A stretch of 64,000 nucleotides of DNA from assembly GCF_963921235.1 (NCBI RefSeq), contig NC_086097.1, forward strand, positions 166,038,001 to 166,102,000. The letters run 5' to 3'. Below the pieces are notes generated by a model, which had not been told where the DNA came from, made no database searches, and saw only the letters and a list, made by a program, of their open reading frames with translations. Each line of letters starts with the position of its first letter. Positions within the stretch are counted from its first letter, which is position 1. Positions 2,360 through 57,176 of this stretch are shown here, piece after piece. The DNA comes from Mobula hypostoma (Eukaryota). The position numbers were made by a program, and so were the translations under genes.

Positions 2360-4288
2360 CAGCACCTCCAGGCTGGGAATTTATATGGTGCTGCTGGAAC
2401 ACCAGTCTCCCCTTCTCCCACCACCCCTCTGCAATCCCGGGTCTCTCAGGTCTCACCGTCAACTCTTGGGTCCTCGGAGACTCCACCTTCCTCTCACCCC
2501 ACCTTCCCTGAACATCCCAACCCTCCCCCTCCTCTGCCACCATCAACCCCCTTCCCCCCTCTTCTCATAGCTCTCATCCGGATTGGTCTTCACCGTCTCT
2601 TCTACCTTCCCCTCTCTGAGGCAGAACATTCTATCCTCAGTAAGACCTTACTGTCCCCCGTACCCACATCTCAGTGAGTTTCTTGGCCACCACAATGCTG
2701 AGCTCTTCTTCTACGACCTCTGTCTCTGAACCTTCTTCTTTGGCAAGGACTCTCCACTCTGCACTGATGACCCCTTCTCCTACCTTCAACCATCCTCCTC
2801 TTCCCGGACACCCAGCTCTGGTTTTCTGCCTGCTCTGGATCTTTTCATTGCTAACAGCTGTTGAGACATCAACAGTCTTGACTTCACCATTCTTCTCTCC
2901 ATTTCTGACCTCACTCCTTCCGAATGCACTGCTCTCCACTTTCCCTGCACTAATACTAGCCTCACCATCAAACCCGCAGATAAGAGGGGGGCTGTACTAG
3001 TCTGGCAGACCAACCTCTACCAGGCGACAACTGTCAGACAACTCCTCTTACTTATCTCTCGAACAGGACCCCACTAAGGAGCACCAGGCCATTGTCTCCC
3101 ACAGCATTACCAACCTTACCTCTGGGGATCTCCCATCCACCCCCACCAACCTCATAGTTTCCTCACCTCGCACTTTCCTTTTCTACCTCCTACCCAAGAT
3201 CCATAAACCTGCCTGTCTAGGTAGACCTATTATTTCTCCTTGTTCCTGCCTCACCAAACTTACATTATCATACCTTGACTCAGTTTTGATCCCCCTCCCC
3301 CCCCCCCACATTTCAGTCCCTTTCTACCAACATCTGAGATACTTCACACACTCTTGATCTTTTCAGTGATTTCAAGTTCCCTGGCCCCGATCATCTTATT
3401 TTCACCATGGATGTCCAGTCCTTATATACCTCCATCCCCCACCAGGAAGGCCTTAAAGCTCTCCATTTCTTTCTGGACACCAGACCCAACCAGTTCCCCT
3501 CCACTGCCACTCTCCTCCGTCTGGTGGAACTGGACCTTACTCTCAATAATTTCTCATTTGTCTCCTCCCACTTCCTTTAAATAGAAGGTGTAGCTATAGG
3601 CACCTACATGGGTCCCAGCTATGCCTGCCTTTTGGGTGGCTACGTGGAAAAGTCACTCCCCAACTTTTCCTCTGCTACATTGACAACTGCATTGGTGCTG
3701 CTTCCTGCGCCCATGTAGAACTCGTCGACTTAATCAACATTACTTCCCACTTCCACCCTGCCCTCAAATTTACCTAGTCCATTTCCAACACCTCCTTCCC
3801 CTTTCTCGATCTCTCTGCCTCCATCTCTGGAAAGAGCTTATCTACTGATATCTTTTATAATCTCCCTGATCCTCACAGTTACCTGGACTATGCCTTTTCC
3901 GATCCTGTTACTTGTAAAAATGCCATTCACTTCTTTCAATTCCTCCATCTCTGCTGCATTGGCTCTCAGGATGAGGCTTTTTATTCCAGAACTAAGGAGA
4001 TTTACTCCTTCTTCAAAGAAAGGGGCTTCCCTTCCTCCACCCTCAACACTGCCTTCACCTACATTTCTTCTATTTTACACATGTCTGCACTCACCCTGTT
4101 GCCATCCTGCCAGAGATGGGGTTTCTCTTGTCCTCGCCTACCACATCACCAGTCCTGATGAAGGGTCTCGGCCCAATACGTTGACTGTTTACTCTTTTCC
4201 ATAGTTGCTGCCTGGCCTGCTGAGCTCCTCCAGCATTTTATGTGTTTTGCTTGGATTTCCAGCGTCTGTAGATTTTTTCTTGTTTGTG
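2360..4288 (+). mobile_element. Old degenerate Penelope-like element (RT region, internal deletion, pLTR with decayed hammerhead)
   Basis: Nucleotide similarity to the 37 and 47 kb PLEs (ggtgtagctataggcacctacatgggtcccagctatgcc; ctacattgacaactgcattggtgctgc). Jumps at ~4150 to the pLTR cagtcctgatgaagggtctcggccc. Left end approximate. Confidence 0.85.
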
Positions 4289-8620: not shown

Positions 8621-8841
8621 TCTAGGAAAATAATTTTGGTTTACCCAGAGGTAGTGCTGTCTTGATAACAAGAAGTGGAAATGGTTTAGTCTATCCCTTT
8701 AAATATCAAGTCATCAATTTACTGGGCTGGTCTTTGGCTCATTGTCAATTTGGTTAGAAATATAATGAATTGAGCTCTAGAAGGGCTTTACATTCATCCA
8801 CTTCATGACTGTGAGCAGGAAAAGGAAGAATAATACTTCCA

Positions 8842-9145
8842 AATAACACACACAAAATGCTGGAAGAACTCAGCAGGCCAGGCAGCACCTATGGAAAAAG
8901 GAACAGTTGACGATTTGGGTCGAGGCCCTTCAGCAGGACTGGTGGGAAAAAAGATGAGGAGTAGCTTTAAAAGGTGGGGGAGGGGAGAGAAGAAAATCTG
9001 CAGATGCTGGAAATCCAAGCAACACACACAAAATGCCGGAGGAACTCAGCAGGCCAGGCAGCATCTTTGGAAAAAGGTACAGTTGACGTTTCGGGTTGAG
9101 AGAAAACCTGCAGATGCTGGAAGTCCAAGCAATACACATATTGTT
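8842..9145 (-). repeat. Tandem array of three partial Penelope pLTRs
   Basis: Three head-to-tail pLTR pieces starting at ~8843, ~8990 and ~9100. Flanked by the 13-bp direct repeat aataatacttcca at 8829-8841 and 10139-10151. Confidence 0.8.
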
Positions 9146-18258: not shown

Positions 18259-18259
18259 G

Positions 18260-20728: not shown

Positions 20729-20752
20729 CTCTGGTCCAAATATCGTTTGGGC

Positions 20753-20766: not shown

Positions 20767-20768
20767 AT

Positions 20769-21055
20769 TGTAGCGGTGTGCTACACACAGCGCTAGAATA
20801 ACCACACGGAGTCGGTGAGTTAGAGTTGCGATGAAAGACATTTATTCAAACTTCGCGGCCCGCTTTAAAGCCTTCCTGTTCCCGCCCTCCCTGGGCGGGA
20901 CTACTGTGGGGAATGCATATTCCCAGACCCTTTCTGCGCGCGGGATTTTCCCCCTGCTGGTGAAGATGGCCTGGCGCCCTTTTTGCTGCCGGCCCTCTGC
21001 CTGCGCGCGCTGTTTCGTGAGCCGGTTCGTGGGTGCCAGAAAGTGGGTCGCCACA
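20769..21055 (-). repeat. 5' LTR of Gypsy element
   Basis: 287-bp direct repeat of 16714-17000. Confidence 0.97.
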
Positions 21056-35465: not shown

Positions 35466-36834
35466 TCTGTGGTATCTTACACAATAACCAGTGCTGTTTC
35501 ACAGACAACAAAGTACTTCTGTAATCTCATCAACCAGGCTGTATAGGAAACAGTTAAGCACTTATAAAATCTCAGTTGAACTTTTCCCCTGCAAAGCTGC
35601 ACTTCTTCACTACTTCATCTTAGTTGCAACTTCTTGAGTTTTATATATCAGTATTCTGAAATGGGATCTCAACCTGCTGCATCATAACTCATCAGCAAAT
35701 TTGTAACCCACTGCAACAGTCCTCAGTTTGCTTGTGATCATTTCAACGAAGGAGCGAGTTCAACCGAAAGGAAAAGTTATACGGGAGAATGTTCCTGTTT
35801 TTCCCTGGGCTGGTAGATTTGGAAATACAAAGCCAAATTAAAAATGTTGGGAACTTGAAACAAAACAGAACTGGAGATATTCAACAAGTCAGGCAGTGTC
35901 TGTGGAAGGAAGAAAAGGAGTTTATGTTTCAGATCTGAGACCGATAACCATTATTTATGAAAGGTCTTCCATCTGAACTATTACCTCTCCACAGGTGCTG
36001 ACTGAACTGCTGAGTGTTACCAGAGAAGAGTTGGACTTGGAGATGAAGATGCATATTAGTGAGATTACAGCTTTTGATAGGGCATTGAAGTTTTAAAGGG
36101 ACCTAACTGGTTGTGATTTCTTTTAATTTATTTTTCAGGAACTAGGTATTGCTGGCGAGATGAGCAGTTCTTGCTGACTCATTGATTGCCCTCGAAGAGA
36201 CAGTAGTGAGCCTTTGCCTTGAATAACAGCTTTCCCTCTGTTGGACCCACTCCCTCAATGCTATTGATGCGGGAGTTCCATGATTTAGATGTAGGACTGA
36301 TGAAATATTTCCAAATCAAGTAGTGGTGCACCCATTCACCTTTTGATGTTGTCCTGCTTGGTGGAGAGGTCAAGGGTTTGAGAGGTGCTGTCAGAGTAGC
36401 CTGGGGCTGTAACCTTAGTGCGTTCTGTAGATGGTACACACCACAGCTGCAGTGCAGCACTTTGGAGAGAATAAACATTTACGTCGCCAGATGGAGTGCC
36501 AATCAGACAGGCTGGTTTGTCTTGGACATGACTTGTGTTGTTGCGCTCACCGGGGCAAATTCGGGGCATACCGTCACTTGCATCTTGTAGATTGTGAAAA
36601 GAGTTGGGAGGTGAGTCATGTGCCACAAAGTAGCCTGTCTCTGACCTGTTCTGGCATTTGTCCTGGTATTGATGTGGCTGGTCCATGGAGACTCCCTTCC
36701 CTTGGATGCTGATGGTGGGGGACTCAGTCACGTCACTGAATGTAAAGGGAAAGTGGTTTCAATTCGCTGTTGTCTGTGATGGTAATTTCCAAGCACCTTC
36801 ACAGCACAAATGTCACTTATCATTTATCAGATGC

Positions 36835-37057
36835 TCATACAAAATGCTGGAGGAACTCTACAAGTCGGGTAGTTTCTATGGAAGGGAATAAACAGTCGAT
36901 GCCATGGGCCGAGACCCTGCATCAGGCCTGACTTATCAAGCCTTGGCCCAAAACATTGGCATTTTATTCCATTCCATAGATGCTACCTAGTCTATTTTTC
37001 TCCACCATTTTGTGGGTGTTGCTCAAGATTTTCAGCATCTGCAGGACCTCTTGTGTT
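36835..37057. repeat. Old Penelope pLTR hairpin insertion
   Basis: Left arm catacaaaatgctggaggaact.. (end-truncated) is inverted against a full right arm ..cattttgtgggtgttgctcaagattttcagcatctgcag. Confidence 0.7.
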
Positions 37058-37341
37058 TATGGTTTATCAGCTGTTGCTTGGTTGTTGTCTAGGTCTTGCT
37101 GCATGCAGGCGTGGAAGACTTTATTTGCTGAGAGATTGCCAATGGAACTGAACATTGGGAAGTTCCTCACTTCTAACCTTATGGTGGAAAGAGGGTCATT
37201 GACGACGCAGCTGAAGATTTCAGTCTCCATTTCCTTACAAGAAAGGAATTTATTAGCTTCCATTATCTACTAACAATAGTCACAATTCCAGCTTTCATGA
37301 AGGATATTTTCCACATGCTATGACCAGGATTAGTTAGCTGA

Positions 37342-38894
37342 ACAATCTATGTTCTGTGCCTATTCTGGTATCTGTCCCCCACTTTTCCTTCGCTACATCG
37401 ACGACTGCATTGGTGCTGCTTCCTGCACGCATGCAGAACTCGTTGACTTTATTAACTTTGCCTCCAACTTTCACCCTGCCCTCAAGTTTACCTGGTCCAT
37501 TTCCGACACCTCCCTCCCCTTTCTAGATCTTTCTGTCTCTGTCTCTGGAGACAGCTTATCCACTGATGTCTACTGTAAGCCTACTGACTCTCACAGCTAT
37601 CTGGACTATTCCTCTTCTCACCCTGTCTCTTGCAAAAACTCCATCTCCTTCTCGCAATTCCTCCGTCTCCGCCACATCTGCTGTCAGGATGAGGCTTTTC
37701 ATTCTAGGACGAGGGAGATGTCTTCATTTTTTAAAGAAAGGGGCTTCCCTTCCTCCACTATCAACTCTGCTCTTAAATGCATCTCCCCCATTTCACGTAC
37801 AGCTGCTCTCACTCCATCCTCCCGCCACCCCACTAGGAATAGGGTTCCCCTGGTCCTCACCTACCACCCCACCAGCCTCCGGGTCCAACATATTATTCTC
37901 CGTAACTTCCACAACCTCCAACAGGATCCCACCACTAAGCACATCTTTCCCTACCCCCCTCTCTCAGCATTCTGCAGGGATCGCTCCCTACGCAAATCCC
38001 TTGTCCATTCGTCCCCCCCATCCCTCCCCACTGATCTCCCTCCTGGCACTTATCCGTGTAAGCGGAACAAGTGTTACACATGCCCTTACACTTCCTCCCT
38101 TACCACTATTCAGGGCCCCAAACAGTCCTTCCAGGTGAGGCAACACTTCACCTGTGAGTTGACTGGGGTGATATACTGCTTCCGGTGCTCCCGATGTGGC
38201 CTTTTATATATTGGCGAGACCCGACGCAGACTGGGAGACCGCTTTGCTGAACATCTACGCTCTGTCCGCCAGAGAAAGCAGGATCTCCCAGTGGCCACAC
38301 ATTTTAATTCCACATCCCATTCCCATTCTGACATGTCTATCCATGGCCTCCTCTACTGTAAAGATGAAGCCACACTCAGGTTGGAGGAACAACACCTTAT
38401 ATTCCGTCTGGGTAGCCTCCAACCTGATGGCATGAACATCGACTTCTCTAACTTCCGCTAAGGCCCCACCTCCCCCTCGTACCCCATCTGTTACTTATTT
38501 TTATACACACATTCTTTCTCTCACTCTCCTTTTTCTCTCTCTGTCCCTCTGAATATACCTCTTGCCCATCCTCTGGGTCCCCCCCCCATCCTCCTTGTCT
38601 TTCTTCCCGGACCTCCTGTCCCATGATCCTCTTGTATCCCCTTTTGCCTATCACCTGTCCAGCTCTTGGCTCCATCCCTCCCCCTCCTGTCTTCTCCTAT
38701 CATTTTGGATCTCCCCCTCCCCCTCCAACTTTCAAATCCCTTACTCACTCTTCCTTCAGTTAGTCCTGACGAAGGGTCTTGGCCTGAAACGTCGACTGCA
38801 CCTCTTCCTACAGATGCTGCCTGGCCTGCTGCGTTCACCAGCAACTTTGGTGTGTGTTGCTTGAATTTCCAGCATTTGCAGAATTCCTGTTGTT
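37342..38894 (+). mobile_element. Young 5'-truncated Penelope-like element (Neptune-type): RT C-terminus, GIY-YIG endonuclease, complete pLTR
   Basis: ORF 37349-38461 with RYIDD, LPFLD, Cys linker CKRNKCYTC, and VIYCFRCSRCGLLYIGETRRRLGDRFAEH. 12-bp TSD ttagttagctga (37330-41, 38895-906). Confidence 0.95.
38761..38798 (+). ncRNA. Minimal type I hammerhead ribozyme in pLTR
   Basis: tagtc-CTGACGA-agg(gtcttgg)cct-GAAA-c-GTC^-gactg. Confidence 0.8.
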
Positions 38895-41240
38895 TTAGTT
38901 AGCTGATCCTCTTTGGCTTCTCGACAAGCAACAGAAAATCTGTTCAATACACAAGAAAAGTCTGCTGGAGGAACTCAGCGGGACAGGCAAAATCTATAGG
39001 GGGAGATGAACAGTCAACATTTTGGGCCAAGACCATTCATCATGACTGAACGGTAGGAGGGCAGAAGTCAGAATGAAAGACTGGAGTGAGGTGGAGGAGC
39101 AAGAGCTGGTTAATGCGTAACAGGTGAATTCCAGTGAGAGGGGTCAGAGATGGAGTTGAGGAATGGGAATTATTTGAGAAGCTGGGAGGTGATAAGTAGA
39201 AGAGGCAAAATAATACCCAATTGGGCTAGCAAGGATCCCAGGTACTTGTGATCCATTAACTGCTTCCCTTTCTTCCCTCCTTCAGTTTACTATGCATTAG
39301 CCCTACTGCTATGCACAGATTATAAAACATTTTCAGCCCTTTGCCTCCTCTTCCTCTAGCTTTTTATTATGTGTGTTGCTCCATTCCAGTATCTGTAGAC
39401 TTCCCTGTGTCTCCAGGAAACCTGGCTGATTATCTTGTCTGTAGGTCCCAGCTGTGTGCAATTCAGTTAGTTTTCATCAGGAGAGAAGATGGGGGAAGGA
39501 TGTGAACATCTCTTGGCAATATGAGACCAGATAACTTAACGTGACAGTTAACAAGCAGGTTATGTTTTTTGTTTGCTTTCTCTCTTTCCTAGTTTTGGAC
39601 CCGAAATGTCTGGTTGTTGTTGTACAGATGTGGCCTGACCAATTGAGTATTTCTAGTATTTTCTAATTTTGTTTGAGATTTCCAGCGTCTGCATTTTAAA
39701 CAAAATTCATCATTAAAAGTAGATTTGTTGGTCAGCAGTGTTTGTGGGACCTCATTGCATGCACCTTGAATGTTATATTTCCTATTGTTACTGCAGGAAC
39801 TACATTTCAAAAGTGCTTCATTGTCTTTTAGCAGCTTTGAAATCTCCCAAGGACGTGAAAGGCACTATATAAATGTAAATTCAGCTTTCTTTCACGAGTA
39901 ACTACCAAACCAATGCTGAGTAGGTGCCTCTGCATTCAGTTGGGTTACAACTGTCAGCACAGGTGGGTACAATGACAAGAATCATATCCTCAGTAATTCT
40001 GAGGCCAAAACTTTATTTTTAGGCAGCCTGTCATCTATTACAATTCTTGGGCAAATAATTACTGGAGCTTAACTGAAGTGTTGGATGAAACACGATAAAA
40101 GCAAGGTTAGGGTATTGTGAAAACTGAAAAAAAAAGAATATTACACAGTTTAAAGGATTAAGAAAAAGTTGAATTCGGTTACTGAAACCTGAAAACGTAA
40201 TTATCTGAAATGTTTCCGATTAAAGACATTTGACTGAAGTTAATTGAACTTCCGGTGGATTAACACCTGGGCTGAAATAACTGGAGAAATTCAGCCATGT
40301 AAGAGGATTGCATGCATCATGCATGTTAAATTCTGCTGTAGTACCGTGATCTGTATGACTAGAGGCCTTATTGGAAACAGTCCAGCAGTAACTTCTTTAA
40401 TGTAATTGCCCCTCTGACTTCAAACAGAAATAATCATCCAGCAGTTTATATTTCCTTTCATCTCTATTGATTTTCTCAAGTCTCTCTGCTTTTAAAATTA
40501 AGCTGACATTTTAGACCAGCCCTAATGGAGCTCAGAGGCAGACATGAAAGTGACTTTTTTCACTTCATTCCTAAATCAAAAAATACATGTAAATGCAATA
40601 GGACCAAATCAAGTTGGCTGCACTATATCATGTTCAGCTTCTTTGAGGGAGCCAGTCTTGGATTTGTGTGGACAATGGACTCTGCATGAGGTGCATTGGC
40701 AGAGACTGCCTTGCTCAGGTACCCCAAATTTATTTAGGCAATTTGCCTCTTCCATTCTAAACCGAGTATGGAAAGCTGTAGGTGTGCAGAGCAGAGGCCT
40801 GACCTCTAATCCTCCTCATCCTTGTCCCTAAATTCCTCCGCATTACTGATCCAAAGCTCTAACCTGACCCCTAACTCCCTTCCCTGTCTCCAAAATCAAC
40901 CATAGGAATTTAAAAACAACTAGGTCTAAGCCACAACTTTGATGGAGACCACAACTATCTTGACTTCTATCAGTCCCATTCCTGTACGTATTTCCACGTA
41001 CCCTGTTCTCCTTCACATCAGTGCCATTCTCGTTCACCAATTAGCCTTCAATGCTAGGGGTGATTTACCATATGGCAACTTAATCTGCCAATTGCACATA
41101 TTTGGGATGTGGATGGAAACTATAGCAGCTGAGGAAACTCTTGTTTTAGCAGCAAGAGCTAACATCAGCTTTGGACCGTGGTACTTTGAGGCAGCAACAC
41201 AAATGTGAACTTCAGAAAGAGCTGGAACAAATTAAATTGA

Positions 41241-41389
41241 AAACAAAAGAGATTCTGCAGATGCTGGAAATCCAGAGCAACTCACACAAAATGTGGGAGG
41301 AACTCAGCAGATCAGACAGCATCTATAGAAAGGAACAAACAATCAAAGTTTCATGCTAAGACCTTGACTGTTTATCCCTCTCCATAGTG
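41241..41389. repeat. Penelope pLTR hairpin-type insertion
   Basis: Full antisense arm plus a short sense arm (ttgactgtttatccctctccatag). 13-bp TSD caaattaaattga (41228-40, 41390-402). Confidence 0.8.
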
Positions 41390-44300
41390 CAAATTAAATT
41401 GATCGTCTATTCATTTGCATACTGTTTTTTGTTCTGAATAAAACACTGACACTGTATGGAATCCAATGCTATTTTTCTCTCTTGGTAATTTACTAAAGTT
41501 TCCACTGTTTATTTTCTTACTGGTAATGGATCAGTGATTAAAGATGTTTCTCCACTGTGGTAAGTTGATGGTGTATATTGATATTGGTATATCAGTGATG
41601 GTAAAATCTGGTGGAGTTAATGGATTATGGAGATATCAGAATGGAATTAGTACAGGATTAGCATACTAGATGGTTGTCATGCACTTGGGGCAGGGGGACC
41701 TCTTCTTCTGCTGCATGACCCTTTGACTAACTAAGGAGTGAGTACTGGGGATGATGGTGGGAAAAGACAGCCACATTGGTTTGCTTGTCCTTCCAGTAAA
41801 TGTGAACCTCTATGATTAGTGTCCTGGCTAATACTATTTGTCCCTGATCCTGATACTCACCAGCATGTATCTTGCCGCCATCATTGCCCTGACACTTTTT
41901 CTCAAAGGTAAATCTAATATGTATCCCTTATGCAAGTCTTCCAGATGATTTAAAACAATAGAAGCTGTCCCGATGACCTGAAACGTCGACAACCCCTTTC
42001 CTCCTACAGATGCTGCTCAACACACTGCATTCTTCTAGCAGACTGTTTGTTGCTGCAGTTTCCCACCTCTGCAGTCTGTTGTGTGCAGATGAATTACCTG
42101 CTCATTATCGTACCACTATTCATGGGAGCTTGGTGTTCGTAAATTGTTTTAAAAATATTACCTACATAGTACAGTGACGGCAGTTTAAATGGCTTTTCTG
42201 AGATCTTGAGATGACTTATAAGTATGATTCTTTACTCATTTCATTCAACTACAGAAGTTAAAGCATGAAGACAAAACTTGTTTCAGATTTAAAATTACAA
42301 GTATAGGCATGCCATTTAAAAAGGGAATACTTGGCACCATATCTATTGTCTTGTATGCTAATTGAAAGCAAAACTAATTCCCTTAATGGCATCTTTGTAA
42401 GTAAGACTCTAATAATAGTGTAGTATTTGGGAATGATACATTCATGTAGATCATCTGTTAATGATCAAGATAAAATGAGAAATGAATCGTTCCAGATTTT
42501 AGGGAGAGACAATTCCTGGCACCACTGTAAACAACTTCTCCATGTATACATGAAAAAGCTTTCTAAAAACCATGAGGGAATTGTTTGAACAAAAAAAGCA
42601 AAACCCACAAAGGCTGAAGTCATGTAAAGAAATTGTTAGAAGAATGTGGTGGAAAGAAAGTAATATTTTCTCCAAAAGCTTCAAGGCTTGTAAACAAAAG
42701 AGTAAAATGAGAAGATTCTGATGCCATGCTTGCATCTATCTGAGGTATGAAACCGCAAAGGAACAAATTGACATTAATAATCTGGAAATCAATCTATTTG
42801 ACAAGGAAAAGATAAAAGAACAACAAGAAATTTTTGTTCCCCAGGCTCTTCCCCTGGCAGAACTAGCTTTTACCCATAGTGGTAAGTGAATGGCGCATGT
42901 TGCTAGGGTGGTGGTAGAGACAGATTCATTAGGACATTTAAGAGACTCTTAGACTGGCACATCATTGAAGGAAAACTGCTGGGGTATGTTGGAGGGAAGG
43001 GTTAAATTGGTCTTGGAGAGTGTTAAAAGGTCAACACAATATCATGGGCAAAGGGCCTGTACTGAGCTGTACTCTTCTATGTTCTCTGTGTATGTTCGAA
43101 TTCTTTTTGGATATTTGGTAAATGGTTTATTACTATCTCATGTACTGAGAAACGGTGAAAATCTTTTGTTTACATGTCACACAGATCGACTGTTCCATAT
43201 ACAAGTACATCGATCTCGTACAAAAAAAAACAGGATGCAGAATATAGTATTACAATTTCAGGGATTCCCCCTCCCTTAAAGTTGCTCTACAATTTTTATA
43301 TAAGTCACAGGGAGAGCCATTGGTCTCACTGTAATGCTGACTACCTGCTGAAGGCATTATATTCCATGGGAACTCCACTGCTAACCATCTGTTCTAGCTG
43401 TAGATAGAGCCATGCAGCATGGTAAAAGGCTCTTTGGCTCATTGGGTCGGTCTCCACATCTCTCCTTGAGCAGTAAGTGTTTCTCTGGTTTCTATGTGTA
43501 ACCGTGTTCTACTGATGTTTACAGCAAAATCAAAAGAGCTATTAGAAGAAGGGAGCATGTTTTCATTCAATTCAGGACACAGGAAAATCAATAGGAATCA
43601 GTCCTACTTCCCCACTATTGAGTTCATTTACAAATGCTGCCAAAAGAAAGCAGCATCCATCATCAAGGACCCCACTATGCAGGTCATCTCGCTACCACTA
43701 TTGGGCAGGAGGTACAGAATCCTTAGGTCCAATGCCACTAGGTTTAGGAACAGTTATTAACCTACAATCATCTTCTGAACTGGTGTGGATAACATCATTC
43801 ATCATGACTCTGAACTGATTCTATGAACGACAGGCTCACTTTCAAGGACTTTTTACAACTCATGTTCTCAGTAGTATTTTTATATGCTCAGTTCTACCTC
43901 TTTTGATCATTGGTTGCTCATCAGTCTTTATTCATGTATAGTTTTCTTGTAAAATTCAATTGTACTTCTTTTTCTCCTGTAAATTTTTGCAAGAAAATGA
44001 AACCCAAGGTAATATATGTTAACATATATTTACTTTGATTATAAATTTACCTTGAACTTACCTGAATGATTTAGATCCTTTCTGACATCTGAGCTAATGT
44101 GTGGTAGATGCCTGAGGGTGAAGCAGGTGGAGCATTCATTTGTGCATCAGAAAGGGCAGAGTAAAGCATGACACCACTTCAAGATCCAAGTTTTTGGTGT
44201 GGTCACCAAGCATCTGGTGGAAGGAAGACCTGTGGAAGACTTTAAACCACCAGGCTGGAAAGGCAACAATGTTCTGTTCTGTTGTATATTATTTGGTCAA

Positions 44301-47073
44301 ATAACGTGGTTTTATGATGGCAATGGAGATTCTTGATAAATTGGTTATTTTGTCTGTAGATTCCTTCTGTTATTTCCTGTGTTGACAATGCCTTGTTCAA
44401 CTAGAATTTGTGTATTGGAAGTGCTAAAATGCGTCTTGTAAAATCAATCACAATCTCACATGTTGATTAATGTCCTTTCAATTGGATCAGATTATTTTCA
44501 GTTTGATGCTGGTATTCAACACCTGGTACCCATGAGTAATATGGGCCGTTCAATCTCTCTAACTCTGAGCAGACATTCCATATTCGGATCAGAACTCCCA
44601 CTGCCAAGTCCAGATGGGATATCAAGTGCTGTTGCAATACAAGTCAAATTTATTTTTGGACTGTAATGGAAGGGAATTTTTCCCTTGGTGAAAACTACAA
44701 ATAATTGGCACCGAACAAACCATTTTCAATACAATTTGCAGAGTCATAATCCCTGGAAAGAAATAATCATTGTTTCAACACGTTTAGAATACAACTGGAA
44801 GGATATTGATTTTGTCCTTGAGATTGAATAGATAACTAAAATATTTTGTCACCAAAAATTTAGGATTATAGCTAAATTTGTGACAAGTTGGGGAAAACAA
44901 GCAAACCATTACTTTCTTGTAGCTGTGGAATGTAAGGCAATTAGATTAATTTGGCTGAAGGTAGAGAAATTATCATTGTTCTAGCTGCCAATCAAATCTT
45001 GGCAAGGCAATTTTTCTAGAAAGCCAATCACTATGGTTGTCAACAAAGAGAAGGACTGTATGAAAGTCAGGCTAAAATAATTTGGCTTAGAAGACAATTT
45101 AAGTACACTCGTTGACTGGCTGCAGATTGCTTCTCTTTCTACCTTACTGGCAGCCACCAATACCTTTAAGAATATTAAGAAATTGGTATGGGAAGTATCA
45201 CATTTATCTCATTATTCCCTGAGATTACTTGTACTGTAATTTAGTTCTTTATGCAGGTGGAAACATAATATTGTGGAATATGAATGATTGTAGTCTTAGG
45301 TATGCCATGGAAATCAATAAAAGGTCGTGAGATTAAGGGATTCTGCAGATGCTGGAAATCTAGATTAACACAAACAAAACGCTGGAAGAACTCAGCAAGT
45401 CAGGCAGCATCTGGGGGGAGGGGGCATTTGCCTTTCAAATAGTCCAACAATGTTAGTGATACTATTCCATCAGAGAAATATCAGTTATGAATGTCGGCTT
45501 ATATTAACACAGGACCTTTTTTGGAAGAGGAATCTCAACTCTGCTGTTCTTGCAGTTGTCATTGTATCTTCAAGGATGTGGTTTTTAATTTAGTTTTAGC
45601 TCTCCCCACCCCATTATCAAATAGCAGACGGGGGCCAAATTACTGTAAAAGATTGATTCTTTTTTGGCTCTAATTTTACACTGCAGACAGTAACGTTCCC
45701 AGCAAACTCAGCTTGCTAATTCTGCAAAAGGAGTTTCAAAAGCTTAATTTAAGTACATTTACAATTTTGAAGGCAAGGTCTGAGTAGACTTGGCAAAATT
45801 TATTGGGAGCAACAACCAGTGGCAGTAAGGTAAGGTATGGTATTCGTTTTTTGTGGACCTGATAAAGAGGGAGTGATCCTCTGAGACTCCCAAAGAAACT
45901 TTGGTCTTCAGTGCTCCATTCATCTCTGACTAGTAATCCAGAATCTGAAGAGAAGGAAGGGCTTTTGCTTTAGCCCTAATTAGATCTCATCTTGACTATG
46001 TTCTACTGATATATTAACCACTGAATCTTGAATATATCAGTCCAAAGTAGTCACTGGTTATGTTGCCTAGAATATTACTGGGGTTCTGTAAGAAAGTTTG
46101 CTTGTTCTTCTCATGAGCAAGTGGGATTCCTCTGGGTGCCCTGGTTTCCTCCCAGAATGCAAAGACATACTGGCTTGTAGATTAATTGTTCATTGTAAAT
46201 TGCACCGTGATTAGCCTAGGGTTAAATAGGTGGTTTGCTGGGAAGTGTGGCTTGTTGGCCCTAAGGAACCTCTTCCGCACTGTAAAATAAAAAACCCTGG
46301 TGTAATGTTAAGTGCTTGGCATTGCCTCCCTGCCATTTTCCTGAGTGTGTTTAGTGGGGATGTGACAAACAATACACCAATCAAGCCCAGCTGTCAATGT
46401 GAGCCAGTTTAGCTAACGCACGGTTAGATGAGGTCAAGATTTTTTTGGCGGATTAGAATGAGTTTTACTTCCAGCAAAAAAAAAGTCATTAGAAACAAGT
46501 TAGGCTGTTTTATATGCAATTTAATGGTTATAATCAAATATCTCCTGCTGACAGTGAGCTGCCAAAGGCCATCAGGGGTTCAGGTTTCACTTCCTAAGGC
46601 CTGGATGTGAAATGCATTCAGTCTCTCGGACTCCGGGTTGTTTTGGGAATCAGTGGTGAATTTAGCTGAAGGGTAAGGCATTAAAAGTGCTGTCCTCCGG
46701 CTCCAAATACTTCTCTCACTTCTGAAATGCATAAATCAGAGAACACAAAAGTCTGGGTGCTGGTGTCTACATTGGAACCCAATAGTTCTGACAGTTCTGG
46801 TTATCAAAGTGCTTTGAGTACTTAGGAATGTCCCATTTTTATGCTGCATGCTGCTCAATGCTGCAGGAAATGCAGGGCCTATCTGTGAACCTTGGAGCCA
46901 GTTTCACAGTCACAAGTTTGGGACTAGGAAGTTTCAATCTTTCTGTGGAGGTTTGTGGTGAACAAGGGCCAGAAGAGAGACTGGGAGGAATGCTGTTTAT
47001 AGATGATTCAGTGATGGTACCTGACTTGATCACAGTAGGTTTTGGCTGTCCTGACTAACTAGAGATCTATCAT

Positions 47074-48835
47074 AAACAACAGGAATTCTGCAGATGCTGG
47101 AAATTCAAGCAACATACATCAAAGTTGCTGGTGAACTTCTTTTTGGATTGCAGACCTAATCAGTTCCCCTCTACCACCACTCTGCTCCGTCTAGCGGAAT
47201 TAGTCCTTACTCTTAATAATTTCTCCTTTTGCTCCTCCCATTTCCTCCAAACTAAAGGTGTAGCTATGGGCACCCGTATGGGTCCTAGCTATGCCTGCCT
47301 TTTTGTTGGGTTTGTGGAACAATCTATGTTCCAAACCTATTCTGGTATCTGTCCCCCACTTTTCCTTCGCTACATCGACGACTGCATTGGTGCTGCTTCC
47401 TGCACGCATGCAGAACTCATTGACTTTATTAACTTTGCTTCCAACTTTCACCCTGCCCTCAAGTTTACCTGGTCCATTTCCGACACCTCCCTCCCCTTTC
47501 TAGATCTTTCTGTCTCTGTCTCTGGAGACAGCTTATCCACTGATGTCTACTATAAGCCTACTGACTCTCACAGCTATCTGGACTATTCCTCTTCTCACCC
47601 TGTCTCTTGCAAAAACGTCATCCCCTTCTTGCAATTCCTCCATCCCCGCCGCATCTGCTCTCAGGATGAGGCTTTTCATTCTAGGACGAGGGAGATGTCT
47701 TCATTTTTTAAAGAAAGGGGCTTCCCTTCCTCCACTATCAACTCTGCTCTTAAACGCATCTCCCCCATTTCACGTACATCTGCTCTCACTCCATCCTCCC
47801 ACCACCCCACTAGGAATAGGGTTCCCCTGGTCCTCACCTACCACCCCACCAGCCTCCGGGTCCAACATATTATTCTCCGTAACTTCCGCCACCTCCAACA
47901 GGATCCCACCACTAAGCACATCTTTCTCTACCCCCCTCTCTCTGCATTCCGCAGGGATCGCTCCCTACACAACTCCCTTGTCCATTCGTCCCCCCCATCC
48001 CTCCCCACTGATCTCCCTCCTGGCACTTATCCGTGTAAGCGGAACAAGTGCTACACATGCCCTTACACTTCCTCCCTTACCACCATTCAGGGCCCCAAAC
48101 AGTCCTTCCAGGTGAGGCATCACTTCACCTGTGAGTCGACTGGGGTGATATACTGCGTCCGGTGCTCCCGATGTGGCCTTTTATATATTGGTGAGGCCCG
48201 ACGCAGACTGGGAGACCGCTTTGCTGAACATCTACGCTCTGTCCGCCACAGAAAGCAGGATCTCCCAGTGGCCACACATTTTAATTCCACATCCCATTCC
48301 CATTCTGACATGTCTATCCACGGCCTCCTCTACTGTAAAGATGAAGCCACACTCAGGTTGGAGGAACAACACCTTATATTCCGTCTGGGTAGCCTCCAAC
48401 CTGATGGCATGAACATTGACTTCTCTAACTTCCGCTAAGGCCCCACCTCCCCCTCGTACCCCATCTGTTACTCATTTTTATGCACACATTCTTTCTCTCA
48501 CTCTCCTTTTTCTCCCTCTGTCCCTCTGAATATACCTCTTGCCCATCCTCTGGGTCACCCCCCCCCCCTTGTCTTTCTTCCCGGACCTCCTGTCCCATGA
48601 TCCTCTCGTATCCCCTTTTGCCTATCACCTGTCCAGCTCTCGGCTCCATCCCTCCCCCTCCTGTCTTCTCCTATCATTTTGGATCTCCCCCTCCCCCTCC
48701 AGCTTTCAAATCCCTTACTCACTCTTCCTTCAGTTAGTCCTGACGAAGGGTCTCGGCCTGAAACGTCGACTGCGCCTCTTCCTATAGATGCTGCTTGGCC
48801 TGCTGCGTTCACCAGCAACTTTGATGTATGTTGCT
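47074..48835 (+). mobile_element. Young Penelope-like element (Neptune-type) with inverted pLTR piece at the 5' end
   Basis: Open frame to 48438 with KGVAMGTRMGPSYA, YIDD and GIY-YIG. Inverted pLTR at 47074-47136. 14-bp TSD tagagatctatcat (47060-73, 48836-49). Near-identical to the 37 kb copy. Confidence 0.95.
48735..48772 (+). ncRNA. Minimal type I hammerhead ribozyme in pLTR
   Basis: tagtc-CTGACGA-agg(gtctcgg)cct-GAAA-c-GTC^-gactg. Predicted cleavage after 48767. Confidence 0.82.
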
Positions 48836-49160
48836 TAGAGATCTATCATCTCTCTTTCCATTTCATTTATCACATTGTCCAATCTTCTTGCTTGATATAG
48901 GGTTCTTACATTCCCAGTGGCAATAATTTTCTTTTGTGTTACTTGAATTTTATGAGCAGTAGCTTGATGACGGTCAGGAATCCCTTGCTGACCAGAACCA
49001 ACCTTACCGGCCGAAGCATCTTCAGAATTGTCTTGAAGATCTTGACGCTGTTGTTGTGTGATACATTTTGTGAGTTTGACCATGGTTTTCTTAGCAAATA
49101 GATTCTAGGAAACGTAGCATCTAGCAACAGTGGTTTGTTATTGCCTACCGCTGGGCGAAC
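48836..49160 (-). mobile_element. RTE-clade LINE 5' end (5' UTR and start of AP endonuclease), inverted
   Basis: IATGNVRTLYQARRLDNVINEMER matches the RTE endonuclease start motif (IATWNVRTL). Confidence 0.75.
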
Positions 49161-49179
49161 TAAATAAATCGAATTAGTA

Positions 49180-50592
49180 ATAGAACAAATTATCGCCCTT
49201 GAAGATTATGGAATTGAAAAACTTACTGAGTTAATCAATTGACGTTTATGAGACTGGAATAATACCAGAAGAGATGAAAAAAATCAGTATTTATCAGTCT
49301 TCTTAAGAAACCTGGAGCAATAGAATGTGAATTACATAGGACCATAAGTTTAATGAGTCATATCACCAAGATACTTCTAAGAATTTTGATGACACCAGCT
49401 AAAAGTAAGATACAAGCTGAATTAGGTAAAGAATAATGTGGTTTTGTGAAAGACAAAGGTACAAGAAACGCAATATTGATGTTAAGGATACTATCAGAAT
49501 GAGCTATTCAAGAGCAAAAAGATTTGTTTGTTTGGTTTATCGACTATACAAAAGCATTTGATAAAGTGAAGCATAATAAGTTATTTGAAATATTACAGAA
49601 AACTCTAGATCTAGATTTGAAAGACCTCTGCCTAATCAGAAATCTGTACTGGGAACAAACTGCCGCTGTAAGAATAGATGGAGAAGTGAGTCAGTTTATG
49701 AAAATCAAGAGAGGTGTTAGACAAGAGTGTGTTTTCTCCCCTGATTTATTTAATGTGTACAGTGAAACAATATTACAAAAAATAAGAGACATCTTCGGAA
49801 TCAAAGTTGGTGGTGAAAACATCAATAATTTCAGATATGCAGATGACACTTTGTTAACTGCAAATATGGAGGAAGAACGACAAAACTTAATTGATATAGT
49901 TGTTGAAGAAAGTGCAAAAATGGGTCTATCTATCAATCGCAAAAAGACAGAATGTATGGTGATATCCAGAAAGAAGGAGAATCCTATCTGCAAGCTGAGA
50001 ATGAACGGGGAAGACATAAAACAAGTACAGAACTTTTGCTACTTAGGAAGCTGGGTGACATCAGATGGCAGGTGCGACATGGACATCAAAAGAAGAATAG
50101 GGATGGCAAAAGACACCTTTACGAAAATGAAGCGTATACTGACCAACACTAAACTAGGAATGACAATCCGCCTCAGAGAACGAAAATGTTACGTTTATCC
50201 AGTTATGTTATTTGGCTCAGAATGTTGGACAATATCTAGTAACATGAGGAAGCAAATTGAAGTAGCAGAGGTGTGGTTTTTGAGGAGGATGCAAAGAATA
50301 TCATGGACAAAATGCATATCTAATGAGGATGTCATGAACAGAGCAAACACAAAAAGAGAAATAATGTATGAGATCATTGGACATGTGATTAGGAAAGAGG
50401 AGTTAGAATACACGGTAATTATGGGAAAGACTGAAGGGAAGAAAGCAAGAGGAAGACAAAGACAAATGATGATGGAGACAGCAGCCAGAGAACTGGAACT
50501 GAATACCAATGAATTGATCCACTTGACCCAAAACAGGAGTGTGTGGGCCATGGCAGTCAAAGCTCAAACTGGGCATGGCACCTGATGATGAT
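49180..50592 (+). mobile_element. RTE-clade LINE RT and 3' end
   Basis: FIDYTKAFD, RGVRQEC, NNFRYADD, FCYLGS, GKKARGRQR. Stop at 50583-85 runs into a (TGA)n tail. Confidence 0.92.
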
Positions 50593-51125
50593 CATCATCA
50601 TGTCTCTCACTTATTAGATATCTACAATAGATGAACAAAAGGATAGGCATACGTGTTGGATCACTATGGCCACTGTGCTGTACAATGAACATATATTTGT
50701 TCTAATTCTGTTCTTTCTATATAATTTTGTATAATTTAAGTTTAATTTATGTTACTCTTGTGAATGTTGTGTCTCTAATACTATGTGCCGGTGATGCTGC
50801 TGCAAGGAAGTTTTTCATTGTGTCCCTGCACACATTTACTTGTGCACATGACAGTAAACTCAACTTTGACTTTGACTTTGATATTGTGCAGTGTCCCAAA
50901 GTCAAAGCCTAATTTGATTATATTTTCATAGGCACAAATACATGTCAGCACAGGTGTAATGAAAAACTTACTTGTAGCAGCATCACGGGCACATAACATC
51001 AAAAAAGCAGCTTTTGATCGACGAATCCATGTACAAAACCTTGCACTATTTAGTTTTATCGTAACACAGTAATTTGTTATGCCTCTACTGTGCTACTGCA
51101 ACAAAACAACACATTTCATAATTTA

Positions 51126-51192
51126 CAGTACTGTGTAAAAGTCTTGGGCACATAAATATACTTAAGATGCCTAAGACTTTTGTACAGTACTG
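51126..51192. mobile_element. 67-bp Tc1/mariner-type MITE
   Basis: TA|cagtactgtgtaaaagtcttgggca...tgcctaagacttttgtacagtactg|TA. Confidence 0.8.
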
Positions 51193-52084
51193 TAGGAATG
51201 TTATGTATTGCACTGTACTGCTGCCGCAAAATAAAACCAAATTTCATGACATACGTGAGTGATGTTAAACCTGATTCTGCTATGGCTCTGAGTGTGGGAA
51301 GGGGGTAGGAAAGGGGATCATGGTTGGGAAAAAGGGAAGGGACAGGGGACGGAGCACGATGCACCAGAGAGACATTCTGTAATGATCAATAGACCAATTG
51401 TTTTGAATGAAATGACCTTGCGTAGTGACTCAGTGCTGGGTGTGTCTGCACATGCACCAAGCCCTATCCCTGGCACTCCTTCTCTGCCACCTGCCCCACA
51501 TCCATCCCATGGGGCTCCACTCTTGGTTTGCTTAATTGCAGATCTGTTAGCTGTCATTCATAGTAAGTGTCCCATTTATTCATTCATGCAATATGCTTGG
51601 CAATACTGGCATTTATTGTCCTTCCTTAGTTACTGCTGACCCCAGCGGCCAGTACCAAGCCATCAGGTAAAGATGCTAGATTTCATTCCCTGAAAGGTCA
51701 TAGTTAATTGGGGGCAGGGGTTTAAAATAAATGATACAGCCACAATTACTCTTCATATTTTAAAAAAATTCTAAATATATTATTTACTTGAATTTAAATT
51801 CCCCAGGTCTTGTGGTTAGATTTGAGCTCATAATTGTAGATTAGAGATCAAGGATTTCTGCATACTAAGGAATTAAGGAATATGGAGTTAGTGGGGGAAT
51901 GTTTCACTGAGGTAAAAGAATGGCAAGGCAGGCATGAGGGGGTTGAATGGTCATCCCCTGCTTCTGCTTTTGTCAGTTCTACATTTATGTACTGATGTGA
52001 TGGAATGATCTGTTTAGATGGCATGTAAGATTTTTATTCACTGTACCTCAATACATGAGATAATAAAAAAAGCACCAGTTTTCA

Positions 52085-52400
52085 TAAAATACATAGAATG
52101 TACAGCAGGGTATGTGGTGCCATCCTATCTATATGCACTCCATGATCAACCTAACCCTTCTTTCCTACACAGCCCATAACCCTCCATTTTTCTTACATCA
52201 CGTGTCTATCTAAGAGTCTTTTAAATGCCCCTATTGTATTAACCTCTACCCACCACGCCAGCAGTGCATTAAGCAGTTGCCACTCTCTGTGTAAAAAAAA
52301 CCTCTGACATCTCCCTTAAACTTTCTGCCATGCATTTTAAACGGATGCCTTCTGATATTGACTATGCCATCCTGGGAAAAAGGTGTTGGCTGCCCACTGG
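52085..52400 (-). repeat. Old CR1 3' fragment
   Basis: GRKFKGDVRGFFY peptide and CR1-type tail. Confidence 0.65.
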
Positions 52401-55400
52401 CTATCAGCTCTGTAACCTTTCTGTAAAAGAAAGACTTATCTTTAACTAGCATTTTCTGCAGCTCTCTAGGAGAAGCACATTACAGCTAATATTTACAGAA
52501 TACAGCCACTGTTGAAATGTAGAAAATGCAGCAGCCATTGTGTATATAGCAAGCCGCCACAAACAGCAGTGTGATAATGAGACCATAATCTGTATTTTTT
52601 ATGTGATGCTGACTGCGGGATAAATATTCGCCAGAGAGATCACTGCTATTCTTTTTTAGTATAGTCTGAGCTGATGAAACCGGCAGACCTTGGTTTAATG
52701 CTCCATTGCAAAAGGTGTCTCCTCTGACAGTGCAGCGCACTGCCTGTACTGCAGTGGAACATCACCTACATTCAGAGTATTGTCACGGTGTGTCGTGGAA
52801 ATCTGACTCTGTGGCAAAGGCATAGCTCCTGGTGAGTGAGAGGTGGAACAGGCTCAAGAAACGAAATGGGTGTATCCTTGTTTTTTTTTGTGTTAGGATT
52901 AAAGGAACTTAGATAAAAGTGCTGGGATTTATTCAAAGCAAAAGGGACACTGAGTGTAATGCTTTGGAGGCCTTTCTGTTTCAAATTCTCCTCTGCGGAG
53001 GAGTTCTGTGGCTGTGTGGCTGGATGTACACTTACTCCTTTGCTTTGACTGCTAGATTAGTCAGTCTCACATTTTGTAAACATTTAGGTCTTAAGGAATC
53101 TTCCAACTTATTAAACCATTTTGGTCTTAATAAACTATTTTTTCTATTTCAACAGTAAGATGAGAAATTCAGTTCTCATTTTTAACATATTTTGTTCACG
53201 AGCAGCGGTCTGCTTGGGCTGCAGTTAAATGGTCTGTTTGTCGAACACCCAACTGAGAACTGGTACAAATTGGGAAATATTTTTCTGCGCGCGTCACACG
53301 GACAAACTAAGTCGAGCAGCAAGACACCAGTAGAATGTTTATTTTTAAAATAATCAGGAATCCCTGTTGAATATCCTTAACATGTTAGTACTTCAATCAG
53401 ACATCAGCAATGCATGGATCAGATAGTATTAGCACTGCTTGCGATTGGTAGTTTTTAACACTATCAGAAATGCATATGGTAAATGAATGAAAAATCACTT
53501 TCAGTCAGTGCCAGGCCCTGTTCCAACTTTTCTCTGAGCTTCTTCTGTTTGAGGCTCCATCCAGATGCATTGACAAACAAGCCCCGATCAAACAGGCATT
53601 AAAACCAGTGACGGGTGTAAGTGCTAGCACACCCAGAAAAATTCAACAGTTCTATGTTGATGGCCTTTGATGAGGCTTTGAAGGCAAAGTGCCAGCAGTA
53701 TATGTGGCTTTATGAGCCCGGGCCAGCTGGCCTTTGTGAAAGTAATGGCCAGATATAAATACACAAAACATTTTCCTGGGAGGAGGAAGGATCTATCCAT
53801 TTATTGCATTATTTTCCTAAACACAGAACAAAGAGTATGGAGGAGGAAGAGGAGGGCATGAGGTTACTGATCCAGTATATTTTTTTAACAATCTGGCTCA
53901 TTGTATGTAGCTTCTTTCTGAATAATACTTGTCTTTTTCAGTTATAGTTGTACTTCACATAAATCATCAGTGACTGCTATTGTTTGGTGACTTAGTTTTC
54001 AATACATTTTCCACTGCACTTCAGTAAATCTGTTCTGGCCAATCTCCAGTGGCCAGTGTGGCTGTATTCATGACTCAGACTATTGGGATCTTCATTTTGA
54101 CAGTCACTTAGGACCTTGGAGATCTTACATACCGTTGTTCATGTGAAGGGAGTTTAACAGGATGCTTGAGTTAGTGAATTAACTCAGCCTATAATTGATC
54201 AAAAGGGAACAAATACATAAATTAAATCCATAGTTTCTCAGTCATTTCTTGACATTTTTGTTTTTTTTCTTACTCTGCCATGTCAATGAACACTTAGAAA
54301 ACTTCTTAGCATTCCTTTTATTTCCTGTTCCAATGTGTTTCACGGCAATGGAGGGAGGGGCTCTTGATGTAAACCCCCTCCAATTTAATGAACGTTGGAA
54401 ATGAAAGAAGTCAATGGAAGGCATTGTCCAAACTCAGGAGTAGAACATGGGTCTGATGCTCATCTATAGTTCCCTGCAATGGCAAGCAGACATCACTGGC
54501 CTGCCTGCCTTTTCAAGAGCTGCTGACAACAGTTTCAAGAAGCGTTCTGGTGTTGGATGCCTATAAAATTACAACATTTTCTCAGCCATTACAATGGGTA
54601 ATCTGCATGCTGAACTTCAGCAATTACAACGGAGAGGAAAGCCTGGGAGGGAGAAAGGGAATATCCAGGGGTAATTATTTTTTTAATTGAGTAACTTATT
54701 TACTGTTGTAAGTATTTTGACATGCTCTTCACAGCAATTAGTTGTTTTTTCCCAATGTTACTGCAATAAGAATTTTAAATAGTTTACAACTGGATGATCC
54801 TGTATACACACTCAGCTGTAGACATTGTAGCCGGCTTCATTAAGAAGATTGCTGCTTGAAAAAGTTGATCCAGGTTAATGTGGAAGTAGTAGAGTGACAA
54901 ATAAAGATGGTTCATCGTTGCCAGGGAATTCAGGGCTAGTAAAATTCATTCTATTTGACAACTGATAGGCCCAGGATCATTAATTCTCAGAGAAAAGTGG
55001 TCAACAAACAAATCTTTTTCCAAGGTATGTGCACCTCTGCATAGTAATTATGTTTCTGTCATAATAAACCAGAAGGCTGAACTAATTAAACATGAGGACA
55101 TAAGCTCAAATCCCACTGCAGCAATTAAAGAACTAAATAAATATGGAATTAAATAACCACTATTAGTCATAGGGACTAGTAATTTTTGAATCTTTGTTTC
55201 ACTAATGTCCTTTACAAAACAGAAGTTGTTACCAATTTGTGGGAATATGTGATCAGTTGACTTTTAACTCCTCAGGAATGGATGTAAGAGAAAGAGTTGT
55301 GAAAAATAGCAGAGAAAATATTTTATCCATTATTTATCACCCAGTCAAGCTAAGAAAACAGTCTGTGTTTCACTGCTGTTTCTGAGATTTTGATAATCAC

Positions 55401-56940
55401 AGAATAGCTGGTGCATTTGCAATGTTATAGTCACAAATACATTTTACACATTGAGATATCTAGAAATGTCAATTTGGGTCAGACAATAAATGGTGGTCTT
55501 AATAGCAAGGCTAATACTTTCCAAAACAAAAGAACAAATATAAATCAATGTCAAAGAACAATTTTCTTTTTTGGTTTGTTTTTCTTGGCCAAATGGGTCT
55601 CCTAACAGTGGTTGGTTGTCATGGACAATGTAATGCAGAGAGCGAAAATTGTATCATTACTCAGGTAGTGAAACCATGGTAACACTGCATGTTAATTCAA
55701 GCAAATTAATGTTCTTCCAAAGGAAGTCTCATCAGGTCTGAAACAAGATTCCAACTACTGTACATTGACCCTATTTGTCACTGGGTGTGGATATGGCCCA
55801 AGTGCGCAGTGAGAGATAACGAAGCAGGTCAATAGTTGACAGACTTTAATGCAAACGGTGTTAAAGGGAAAAGAAAACAATAAACGCTAGGCCAATCACG
55901 GCCGTTAACAAAAACTCTCAAATGGAAAACGAAGCCTACACTGTGGCTGAAAGGAACAACTAAGAATAAAACGAATACTGCTAGTCTGCAGAGTCATCTG
56001 ATTCAACAGTCCAATTTCTCAGGCAAGGCAGAATGCAAGCAGGCAGTGAAGCGTTGCTGTGCTGTGTCCAAGTCTCGACAAACACTGATGGAATGAATGG
56101 AGTTAAATACTATCACAATGAAATAATAATTAGCTGACACATTCATATTCACAAGCGCAATTGCCGAATCTGCTGCGCTGCCGAATCTGTGGTTGTGACA
56201 GGGCCCCCCTCTCTTGGCATAGCCCCTGAGGCGCTCCAGACCTGTGTCCGCTGGAAGTTCCGAATGAGGGACTTGTCCAAGATGTCCTTCAGTGATGTTA
56301 GTAGATAAGTGTCATGGTGTGCACTGCCAATTTTGGAGCCAAAGACTTCCACGTAGAGACAGAAACAAGAGCTTTTACAGAGGTAGTTCGACCAAGTGAC
56401 ACCGTGAGATGGATCATTCTCAAAATGAGGGCCCTCTGATTGGAGCTAATTTGGCATCTGCTAGAACAATAAAACTAACACAGAATCCCTGAGCCTATCA
56501 AAATAAACTTAACAAACTTAAACAGAAAGCACCAGGAAACCGCATTACAATGAGCGAGTTCCTCGAGAAAAACACAAGCAACTCTTAAACCATTAATAAC
56601 TGTTGTTAAGCAACAATTAACCAATTCAGGTGCTCTAAAAACCTCAGAGCCCAATGCTCTCTGATGCCCTGCACAGGCCTGAAGTAGTCACTACAGGACC
56701 CCCCTCCATACAGCTGCCACCTGATGGCCCAGGAAGACCTGAAAACTCAAGAGACCTTGGGGACTTGAGAGGGAAGCACGGGAACCCCAATAGACTGGGA
56801 GGCCTGAGAACCCCAACAGACTGAGATCAAGAAACCTCTGGTGGGGCTGAGAGGGAGACTTGGGAGTCCTCGAGATGGGGGAGGACATTGAAAACCCCAA
56901 ACACTTTGATTAAACCTTGGAAACAATCAGAAAAATAAAA

Positions 56941-57176
56941 AAAAACGCAAACAACAGGAATTCTGCAGATGCTGGAAATTCAAGCAACATACATCAAAGT
57001 TGCTGGTGAACGCAGCAGGCCAAGCAGCATCTATAGGAAGAGGCGCAGTCGACGTTTCAGGCCGAGACCCTTCGTCTTAGTCCTGACGAAGGGTCTCGGC
57101 CTGAAACGTCGACTGCGCCTCTTCCTATAGATGCTGCTTGGCCTGCTGCGTTCACCAGCACTTCGATGTATGTTGC
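56941..57176. repeat. Young Penelope pLTR head-to-head hairpin
   Basis: Near-perfect inverted arms of ~95 bp around 57077-57084. 13-bp TSD cagaaaaataaaa (56928-40, 57177-89). Confidence 0.9.
57078..57115 (+). ncRNA. Minimal type I hammerhead ribozyme
   Basis: Identical to 48735-48772. Confidence 0.8.

Follow-up and report, generated by a model that had tools for sequence, protein, structure and literature searches.

A minimal type I hammerhead motif and the insertions of an abundant Penelope-like retrotransposon in Mobula hypostoma

Hammerhead ribozymes in the pseudo-long terminal repeats (pseudo-LTRs) of Penelope-like elements (PLEs), including the fish elements Xena, Poseidon and Neptune, have been published (Cervera and De la Pena 2014, PMC4209133), and their role in these elements is stated to be unclear (PMC8557442). 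A 64,000-nucleotide stretch of the Mobula hypostoma genome (assembly GCF_963921235.1, contig NC_086097.1, positions 166,038,001 to 166,102,000 of the forward strand; hereafter the window) raises the question of this role, as three copies of its common short repeat carry a hammerhead motif with an intact core. Does the element need this motif to cleave, and which RNA is copied when it inserts? We here propose that the pseudo-LTR of a young Penelope-like retrotransposon of very high abundance carries the motif, as a minimal type I hammerhead sequence, and that the RNA of this element is copied uncut after priming on both strands of the target (twin priming). As a whole, we give this explanation a probability of about 0.75.

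The motif and its carrier element

The three intact motifs occupy window positions 38761-38798, 48735-48772 and 57078-57115, all on the plus strand, with the predicted cut after 38793, 48767 and 57110, respectively; the third lies within one arm of a 76-bp perfect inverted repeat. Family positions are counted from +1 at window position 38760, 48734 or 57077, so that the motif spans +2 to +39 and the predicted cut follows C(+34). All three copies read helix I TAGTC/GACTG, the core CTGACGA, GAAA, CG and TC, and contain the complete core of the minimal hammerhead ribozyme (min-HHR), i.e. C3U4G5A6N7G8A9, G12A13A14, A15.1-U16.1 and H17. A descriptor that checks the helices finds exactly these three matches in the window and 19 in 654 kb of random genome stretches, compared to none in each of five shuffles and none in the reversed sequence. 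The copies that the initial annotation had placed here are thus confirmed, as far as their sequence goes, as intact minimal type I hammerhead motifs.

The assignment of helix II had to be revised. In equilibrium folding models, which contain neither tertiary contacts nor proteins, the isolated motif forms helix I (of the 4-5 bp type, closing the 5' and 3' ends) with a pair probability of 0.93. For helix II, the models favor four base pairs, GGGU/GCCY, which leave the A that follows A9 unpaired (pair probability 0.94), whereas the agg/cct stem proposed earlier reaches 0.02. Helix III is, as had been proposed, reduced to a loopless palindrome, and ACGU is kept in all five subfamily consensus sequences (CpG-aware consensus). 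The 10.1-11.1 pair is G-C in four subfamilies and G-U in the youngest, the three window copies included. A genome-wide search gives 65,753 matches to the exact core pattern (none in the reversed control) and 128,558 when CpG decay is allowed for (one in the control), which bears out the initial annotation's expectation of a very large number of intact motifs; 114 profile matches in 654 kb extrapolate to roughly 600,000 pieces of the family.

The five subfamilies comprise 102, 17, 9, 9 and 4 members of 315 motif matches, the remainder being unclustered or without native upstream DNA. Across them, variation is seen at four of the five free positions (N7 and loop 2) and in 33 of the 69 columns of the tail, but at two of the 31 positions that are paired or belong to the core (Fisher tests, 3e-5 against the tail and 1e-3; CpG-aware consensus). 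Since change falls on N7 and loop 2, the conservation is like that of a selected ribozyme. Position 11.1 is U in 156 of 190 copies of the youngest subfamily while the next G is kept in 189, and hence the C11.1U change appears to be inherited. The same subfamily has 4 nt duplicated within the stretch just before +3. An older subfamily, 12% diverged and with its own untranslated region (UTR) and remnants of an open reading frame (ORF), carries the change A6C in the core (CUGCUGA; 8,033 genome matches). Thirty of these matches were read: by eye, four resemble young copies with a point change, and 12 are immediately preceded by ORF remnants, which are of the older type in 10 cases. For a different hammerhead, the rate in 0.3 mM Mg2+ was 3.55e-6 per min with A6C and 0.3 with A6, and A6C slowed the reaction more than 10,000-fold in Mg2+ relative to Mn2+ (PMC7151607). 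Judged from its genomic copies, the A6C subfamily still spread.

Upstream of the first two motifs, a UTR of about 295 nt separates the motif from coding frames, which read the end of a reverse transcriptase (RT), a CKRNKCYTC linker of the form CX4CxxC and a GIY-YIG endonuclease with two internal cysteines. The full element has a single ORF of 1016 aa that starts at +173 and comprises RT, linker and GIY-YIG with CCHH, in a unit of about 3.5 kb. Pfam matches to RVT_1 (E=1.3e-5) and GIY-YIG (E=2.5e-4 and 9.6e-4) are in line with the domain motifs visible in the translated frame. Searching the genome at the protein level gives 62,785 first-look candidates, of which 150 were scored and are 95-100% identical. 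The hallmarks of such elements are present as well, i.e. an inverted 5' arm, a one-sided tail, target duplications and pseudo-LTR partial tandems, with at least four of 20 long copies having motif and tail ahead of the full frame. Taken at the sequence level, this supports a carrier that is an endonuclease-positive PLE with a Neptune/Nematis linker, and the common repeat, which the initial annotation had called a Neptune pseudo-LTR, is its pseudo-LTR end. A CX2-5CxxC linker marks Neptune or Nematis and is absent in Poseidon (PMC8557442), and a 2026 preprint reports only Neptune and Poseidon from the vertebrates it covers (bioRxiv 10.64898/2026.07.22.740005). Membership of the Neptune clade is therefore likely by motifs and host range rather than by an RT tree. 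The closest named relatives are ray (85-90% identity) and shark (67-71%) proteins, and none of the 120 relatives listed is a named Neptune or Nematis protein.

Insertion ends, template RNA and the role of cleavage

In a sample of 127 young copies, the 3' ends fall in near-equal numbers at about +100 (60/127) or about +136 (67/127). In every head-to-head pair, one arm ends at +100 and the other at +136 (33/33 in the sampled stretches and the window, 34/34 in an overlapping set). The one-sided tail and this pair rule fit the two RT start sites and the two-strand priming described in vitro for the green anole element (PMC11167929). Moreover, the paired arms tend to be either both short or both long (21, 1, 3, 8; p=1e-4), as if a template common to the two had limited their length, and not independent stalling. 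Fold-back self-priming was considered as a source of the pairs and rejected, as neither arm is consistently the longer, in better agreement with two primings.

The 5' ends pile up at the front edge of the motif. Nineteen of the 127 lie at +1 to +5, i.e. 0.044 per base at risk compared to 0.0006-0.0019 upstream of -30, an excess of about 25-fold; another 13 form a shoulder at -11 to 0, and two lie in the predicted cut region at +33 to +37. Among 14 short copies from stretches picked without regard to the motif, 11 have this end at -11 to +12 and none has it at +33 to +37. Across the genome, the native pyrimidine before A(+3) is replaced by a purine in 2,989 intact copies, and in none of the 30 that were read (18 head-to-head, 12 solo) is the motif preceded by the upstream sequence of the young family. 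Since short copies begin at the front edge of the motif and not at the cut site, the RNA was likely copied uncut. A fossil of the cut site in the form of a pile-up at +35 was rejected: a larger sample has 3/161 ends at +35/+36, all three on partner arms of head-to-head pairs and two with 4-nt microhomology. At some junctions before A(+3), short extra letters repeat +7 to +15 of the motif or end in GTG, and look as if the RT had slipped back at the end of the template.

In the mechanism that we favor, the two strands of the target are nicked, and the element protein would prime on each of them, starting from fixed positions (+100 and +136) in one and the same RNA. This RNA would be uncut and likely begin near A(+3), where helix I has its first base pair; we lean slightly towards this end being a transcript start. 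Priming on the leader would yield run-off copies of 100-136 bp, and priming on the downstream repeat would yield the long copies. If the motif behaves like those of published relatives, cleavage after GUC would be weak and would take either a dimer, formed via the ACGU palindrome, or the element protein. The element can likely spread without cleavage; for the anole element in vitro, mutating the hammerhead left insertion unaffected and uncut RNA was the main substrate (PMC11167929). A more tentative extension, to which we give somewhat less than even odds, is that the hammerhead acts as the folded 5' tip of the template RNA, that a protein dimer copies the uncut leader and that catalysis is dispensable for mobility, because the Mg2+-crippled A6C subfamily made thousands of copies and the youngest subfamily appears to mask its own motif.

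The pile-up could instead reflect a barrier, with a folded or protein-bound motif halting 5'-3' exonuclease trimming or the RT at its front edge. Such a barrier would account for the shoulder at -11 to 0 and for the lack of a cap-G excess before A(+3), and the boundary, by eye, tracks the motif in the A6C subfamily too; independent stalling of the RT, however, does not predict arm lengths that go together. In a variant of this explanation, the front edge is a splice acceptor. A pyrimidine tract and AG, readable as splice acceptor or initiator, stand just before +3 in all five subfamilies, and an intron of Drosophila virilis ends at helix I (PMC4209133), but solo copies with clear target duplications share no upstream exon, and no GT..AG joint into the motif was found among 15 of 38 joints (run contigs). 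We consider a barrier possible, yet not the probable origin of the pile-up.

It appears unlikely that the hammerhead is both active and needed, such that motifs in tandem transcripts cut as a dimer and the unit RNA is released or circularised as template, as in the model of Cervera 2014 (PMC4209133); the pile-up would then mark a second, linear RNA. The core, the helices and ACGU are indeed kept in the subfamily consensus despite CpGs decaying in 30-38% of old copies, partial tandems hold two motifs 3.5 kb apart, and a religated circle would leave no +35 end. The spread of the A6C subfamily is difficult to reconcile with this model, and so is the youngest subfamily, which has G10.1-U11.1 (156/190) and whose core, with the native upstream UTR present, is predicted to pair with the pyrimidine tract (helix I 0.00-0.03 vs 0.95). 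Furthermore, the rates in the literature are low, and insertion in vitro still occurs with mutants. A family-wide off-switch hairpin was rejected, as the masking predicted for the youngest subfamily (reached by 4/60 shuffles) is not predicted for two other subfamilies (21 and 22 of 60).

The initial annotation had added possible cleavage of host RNA to its reading. In 240 nt of native context, both helices are predicted to stay above 0.5 in 9/106 intact copies, namely 4/65 with native upstream sequence, 1/26 head-to-head and 4/15 solo copies with foreign upstream DNA, and the three window copies are predicted to be misfolded in their own flanks. Most genomic copies are thus predicted to misfold inside read-through RNA. 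In a dimer, helix III would comprise just 4 bp (-3.1 kcal/mol), against a competing self-duplex of GUCGAC (-7.5). For minimal motifs in the literature, monomers showed no cleavage and dimers only inefficient cleavage (PMC4209133), and the motif of the anole element cleaved only with the element's protein (PMC11167929). Contigs from four possibly-RNA sequencing sets contain the sequence, and carry no information on RNA ends, strand or level. A scan of 9 window frames, which is not a gene prediction, identified no host gene near the window copies. Cutting of host pre-mRNA is doubtful because only 9/106 sampled copies are predicted to fold in context, and despite at least 65,753 intact cores in the genome, the predicted folding of 4/15 solo copies and three window copies on one strand 8-10 kb apart, the idea that many intronic copies cut host pre-mRNA is highly improbable.

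Several points weigh against the preferred reading of an uncut, twin-primed hammerhead RNA. An Rfam scan of the window gives 16 matches at E<=10, none of them to a hammerhead model, and the Pfam scores for RT and GIY-YIG lie below the curated cut-offs. Most of the 127-copy sample was chosen for an intact +4 to +37, which hides ends further downstream; the share of copies beginning downstream of +4 is drawn from the sampled stretches, whose motif-unbiased part comprises 14 short copies, with the window and the stretches on either side of it among its sources. The 5' ends range from -11 to +20, more than a single sharp start would give, and a cap-like G before A(+3), hinted at in a few hand-picked solo copies, shows no excess in the first 100 genome-wide matches listed (47 G vs 53 A by eye, p=0.42). 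The lack of ends at +35 means that cut RNA was not copied and says nothing on the absence of cutting. Finally, of the two signs of constraint to which the initial annotation looked, core and stems are more conserved across subfamilies than the flanking tail, but covariation is missing: no pair changed on both sides across the five, and the helix columns are invariant but for the one-sided C11.1U, so that the conservation could reflect protein binding.

Family copies and other elements in the window

The window contains 19 pieces of the Penelope-like family. The three intact motifs belong to three separate insertions with target duplications of 12, 14 and 13 bp. Insertion 1 (37342..38894, plus strand) is a 5'-truncated element with the end of the RT, linker, GIY-YIG, 3' UTR, hammerhead and a tail to about +136; its open frame spans 37334-38461 and its 12-bp target duplication lies at 37330-41 and 38895-906. 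Insertion 2 (47074..48835, plus strand) joins a short inverted arm (47074-47136, minus strand, +74 to +136) to a 5'-truncated direct arm (47137-48835, plus strand) that ends at about +102, with the 14-bp duplication at 47060-73 and 48836-49. Insertion 3 (56941..57176, both strands) is a head-to-head pair of short arms, of which the minus arm (56941-57076) covers +9 to +136 without the start of the core and the plus arm (57077-57176) +1 to +100; its 13-bp duplication lies at 56928-40 and 57177-89. The three copies are likely dead by-products of the element's spread.

All four decayed copies listed in the initial annotation are present, one of them in part. An older broken copy (3001..4286, plus strand) has RT remnants with about 76% identity to insertion 2 and a decayed hammerhead at 4151-4187 in which G12 is lost. 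An older short copy (8836..8945, minus strand) has its motif at 8905-8944, with an A6C core (CTGCTGA) and G12 lost. An old head-to-head pair of short copies (36834..37058; minus arm 36834-36934, plus arm 36920-37058) has both hammerheads decayed, and the motif at 36893-36930, for which no strand had been given, sits on the minus strand. The old fragment near 41970 (41975..42082, plus strand) holds the 3' half of the motif only (41975-41991), without CUGANGA. The 17-mer by which the repeat had originally been named is the minus strand of the element's tail, near +104 to +136.

Other elements surround these copies. A Gypsy-type LTR retroelement (16713-21055, minus strand) has 288-bp terminal repeats that are 98% alike, with gag, RT/RNase H and integrase in separate frames, and broken remnants of a second LTR-retroelement pol gene lie at 61259-63391 on the plus strand. 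Non-LTR retroelement fragments lie at 14580-15515, 23974-25053, 26221-28889 and 49503-50585; by their motifs, we take them to be CR1/L2-like and RTE-like. Short inverted-repeat elements at 5137-5367, 28940-29048 and 50763-51014, probably non-autonomous DNA transposons, gave weak chance Rfam microRNA matches. Three copies of another repeat of about 420 bp (16071-16489, 55775-56199, 58880-59281) are 74-82% alike, and a frame at 29416-29859 (minus strand) weakly matches a C17orf113-type zinc finger (E=0.0085) and is perhaps a DNA-transposon remnant.

Known systems and significance

The motif class itself is ordinary, and the system is of a known kind. Like the min-HHRs of metazoan PLEs (PMC4209133), the motif has type I topology, a short helix I, no loop 3, a palindromic 15.2-16.2 and an unpaired nucleotide between 9 and 10.1, and it is sited in a pseudo-LTR, mostly as single dispersed copies. 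Unlike those, it has a 4-bp helix II, G10.1-U11.1 in the youngest subfamily and A6C in one; the host groups in the sections of that paper drawn on here include no named cartilaginous fish. Compared to the Neptune/Nematis endonuclease-positive PLEs (Craig et al. 2021, PMC8557442), the element shares the C-terminal GIY-YIG with CCHH, the CX2-5CxxC linker, DKG and GxKF-like motifs, partial tandems, the inverted 5' arm and a one-sided tail of 30-40 bp. It differs, by eye, in showing no (TA)n preference in its flanks, and the strict +100/+136 pairing and the 5' pile-up at the hammerhead edge are not described in the consulted sections of that source.

The green anole Poseidon element PAc (Frangieh et al. 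2024, PMC11167929) likewise has two internal RT start sites that define the tail, priming on both target strands and uncut RNA as template, features that we infer here from insertion ends, and shows no ends at the cut site (reads there, genomic copy ends here). PAc, by contrast, belongs to another clade, lacks the linker zinc finger and has an ORF that starts inside the hammerhead, compared to 173 nt after the first base of the motif in our element. Animal non-LTR retrozymes (Li et al. 2026, bioRxiv 10.64898/2026.07.22.740005), reported also in one chondrichthyan, are similar in being short non-coding pseudo-LTR derivatives with type I hammerheads. The Mobula copies are instead dispersed truncations of an autonomous element, and no retrozyme-type tandem array of short hammerhead units occurs among the copies seen, which are solo, head-to-head or the ends of ORF-bearing elements. 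Our literature search found no paper on this Penelope-like family or on the pile-up; the Lunse 2017 tables and one Cervera supplement could list the motif.

With published per-genome counts of about 4,000 in coelacanth and 9,000 in Xenopus (PMC4209133), the at least 65,753 exact copies found here amount to an increase of about sevenfold or more over what is known for such motifs in a single genome. In the sources that we draw on, the Penelope insertion mechanism has been addressed in one in vitro study (PMC11167929). With core variants that occur naturally (A6C, C11.1U), numerous young ORFs that are intact and junctions in the thousands, the Mobula family makes the need for cleavage and the start of the template directly testable. 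If the more tentative extension given above, with the hammerhead as the folded tip of the template, is correct, this genome would be an in vivo record of the Penelope insertion mechanism that spans several hundred thousand events.

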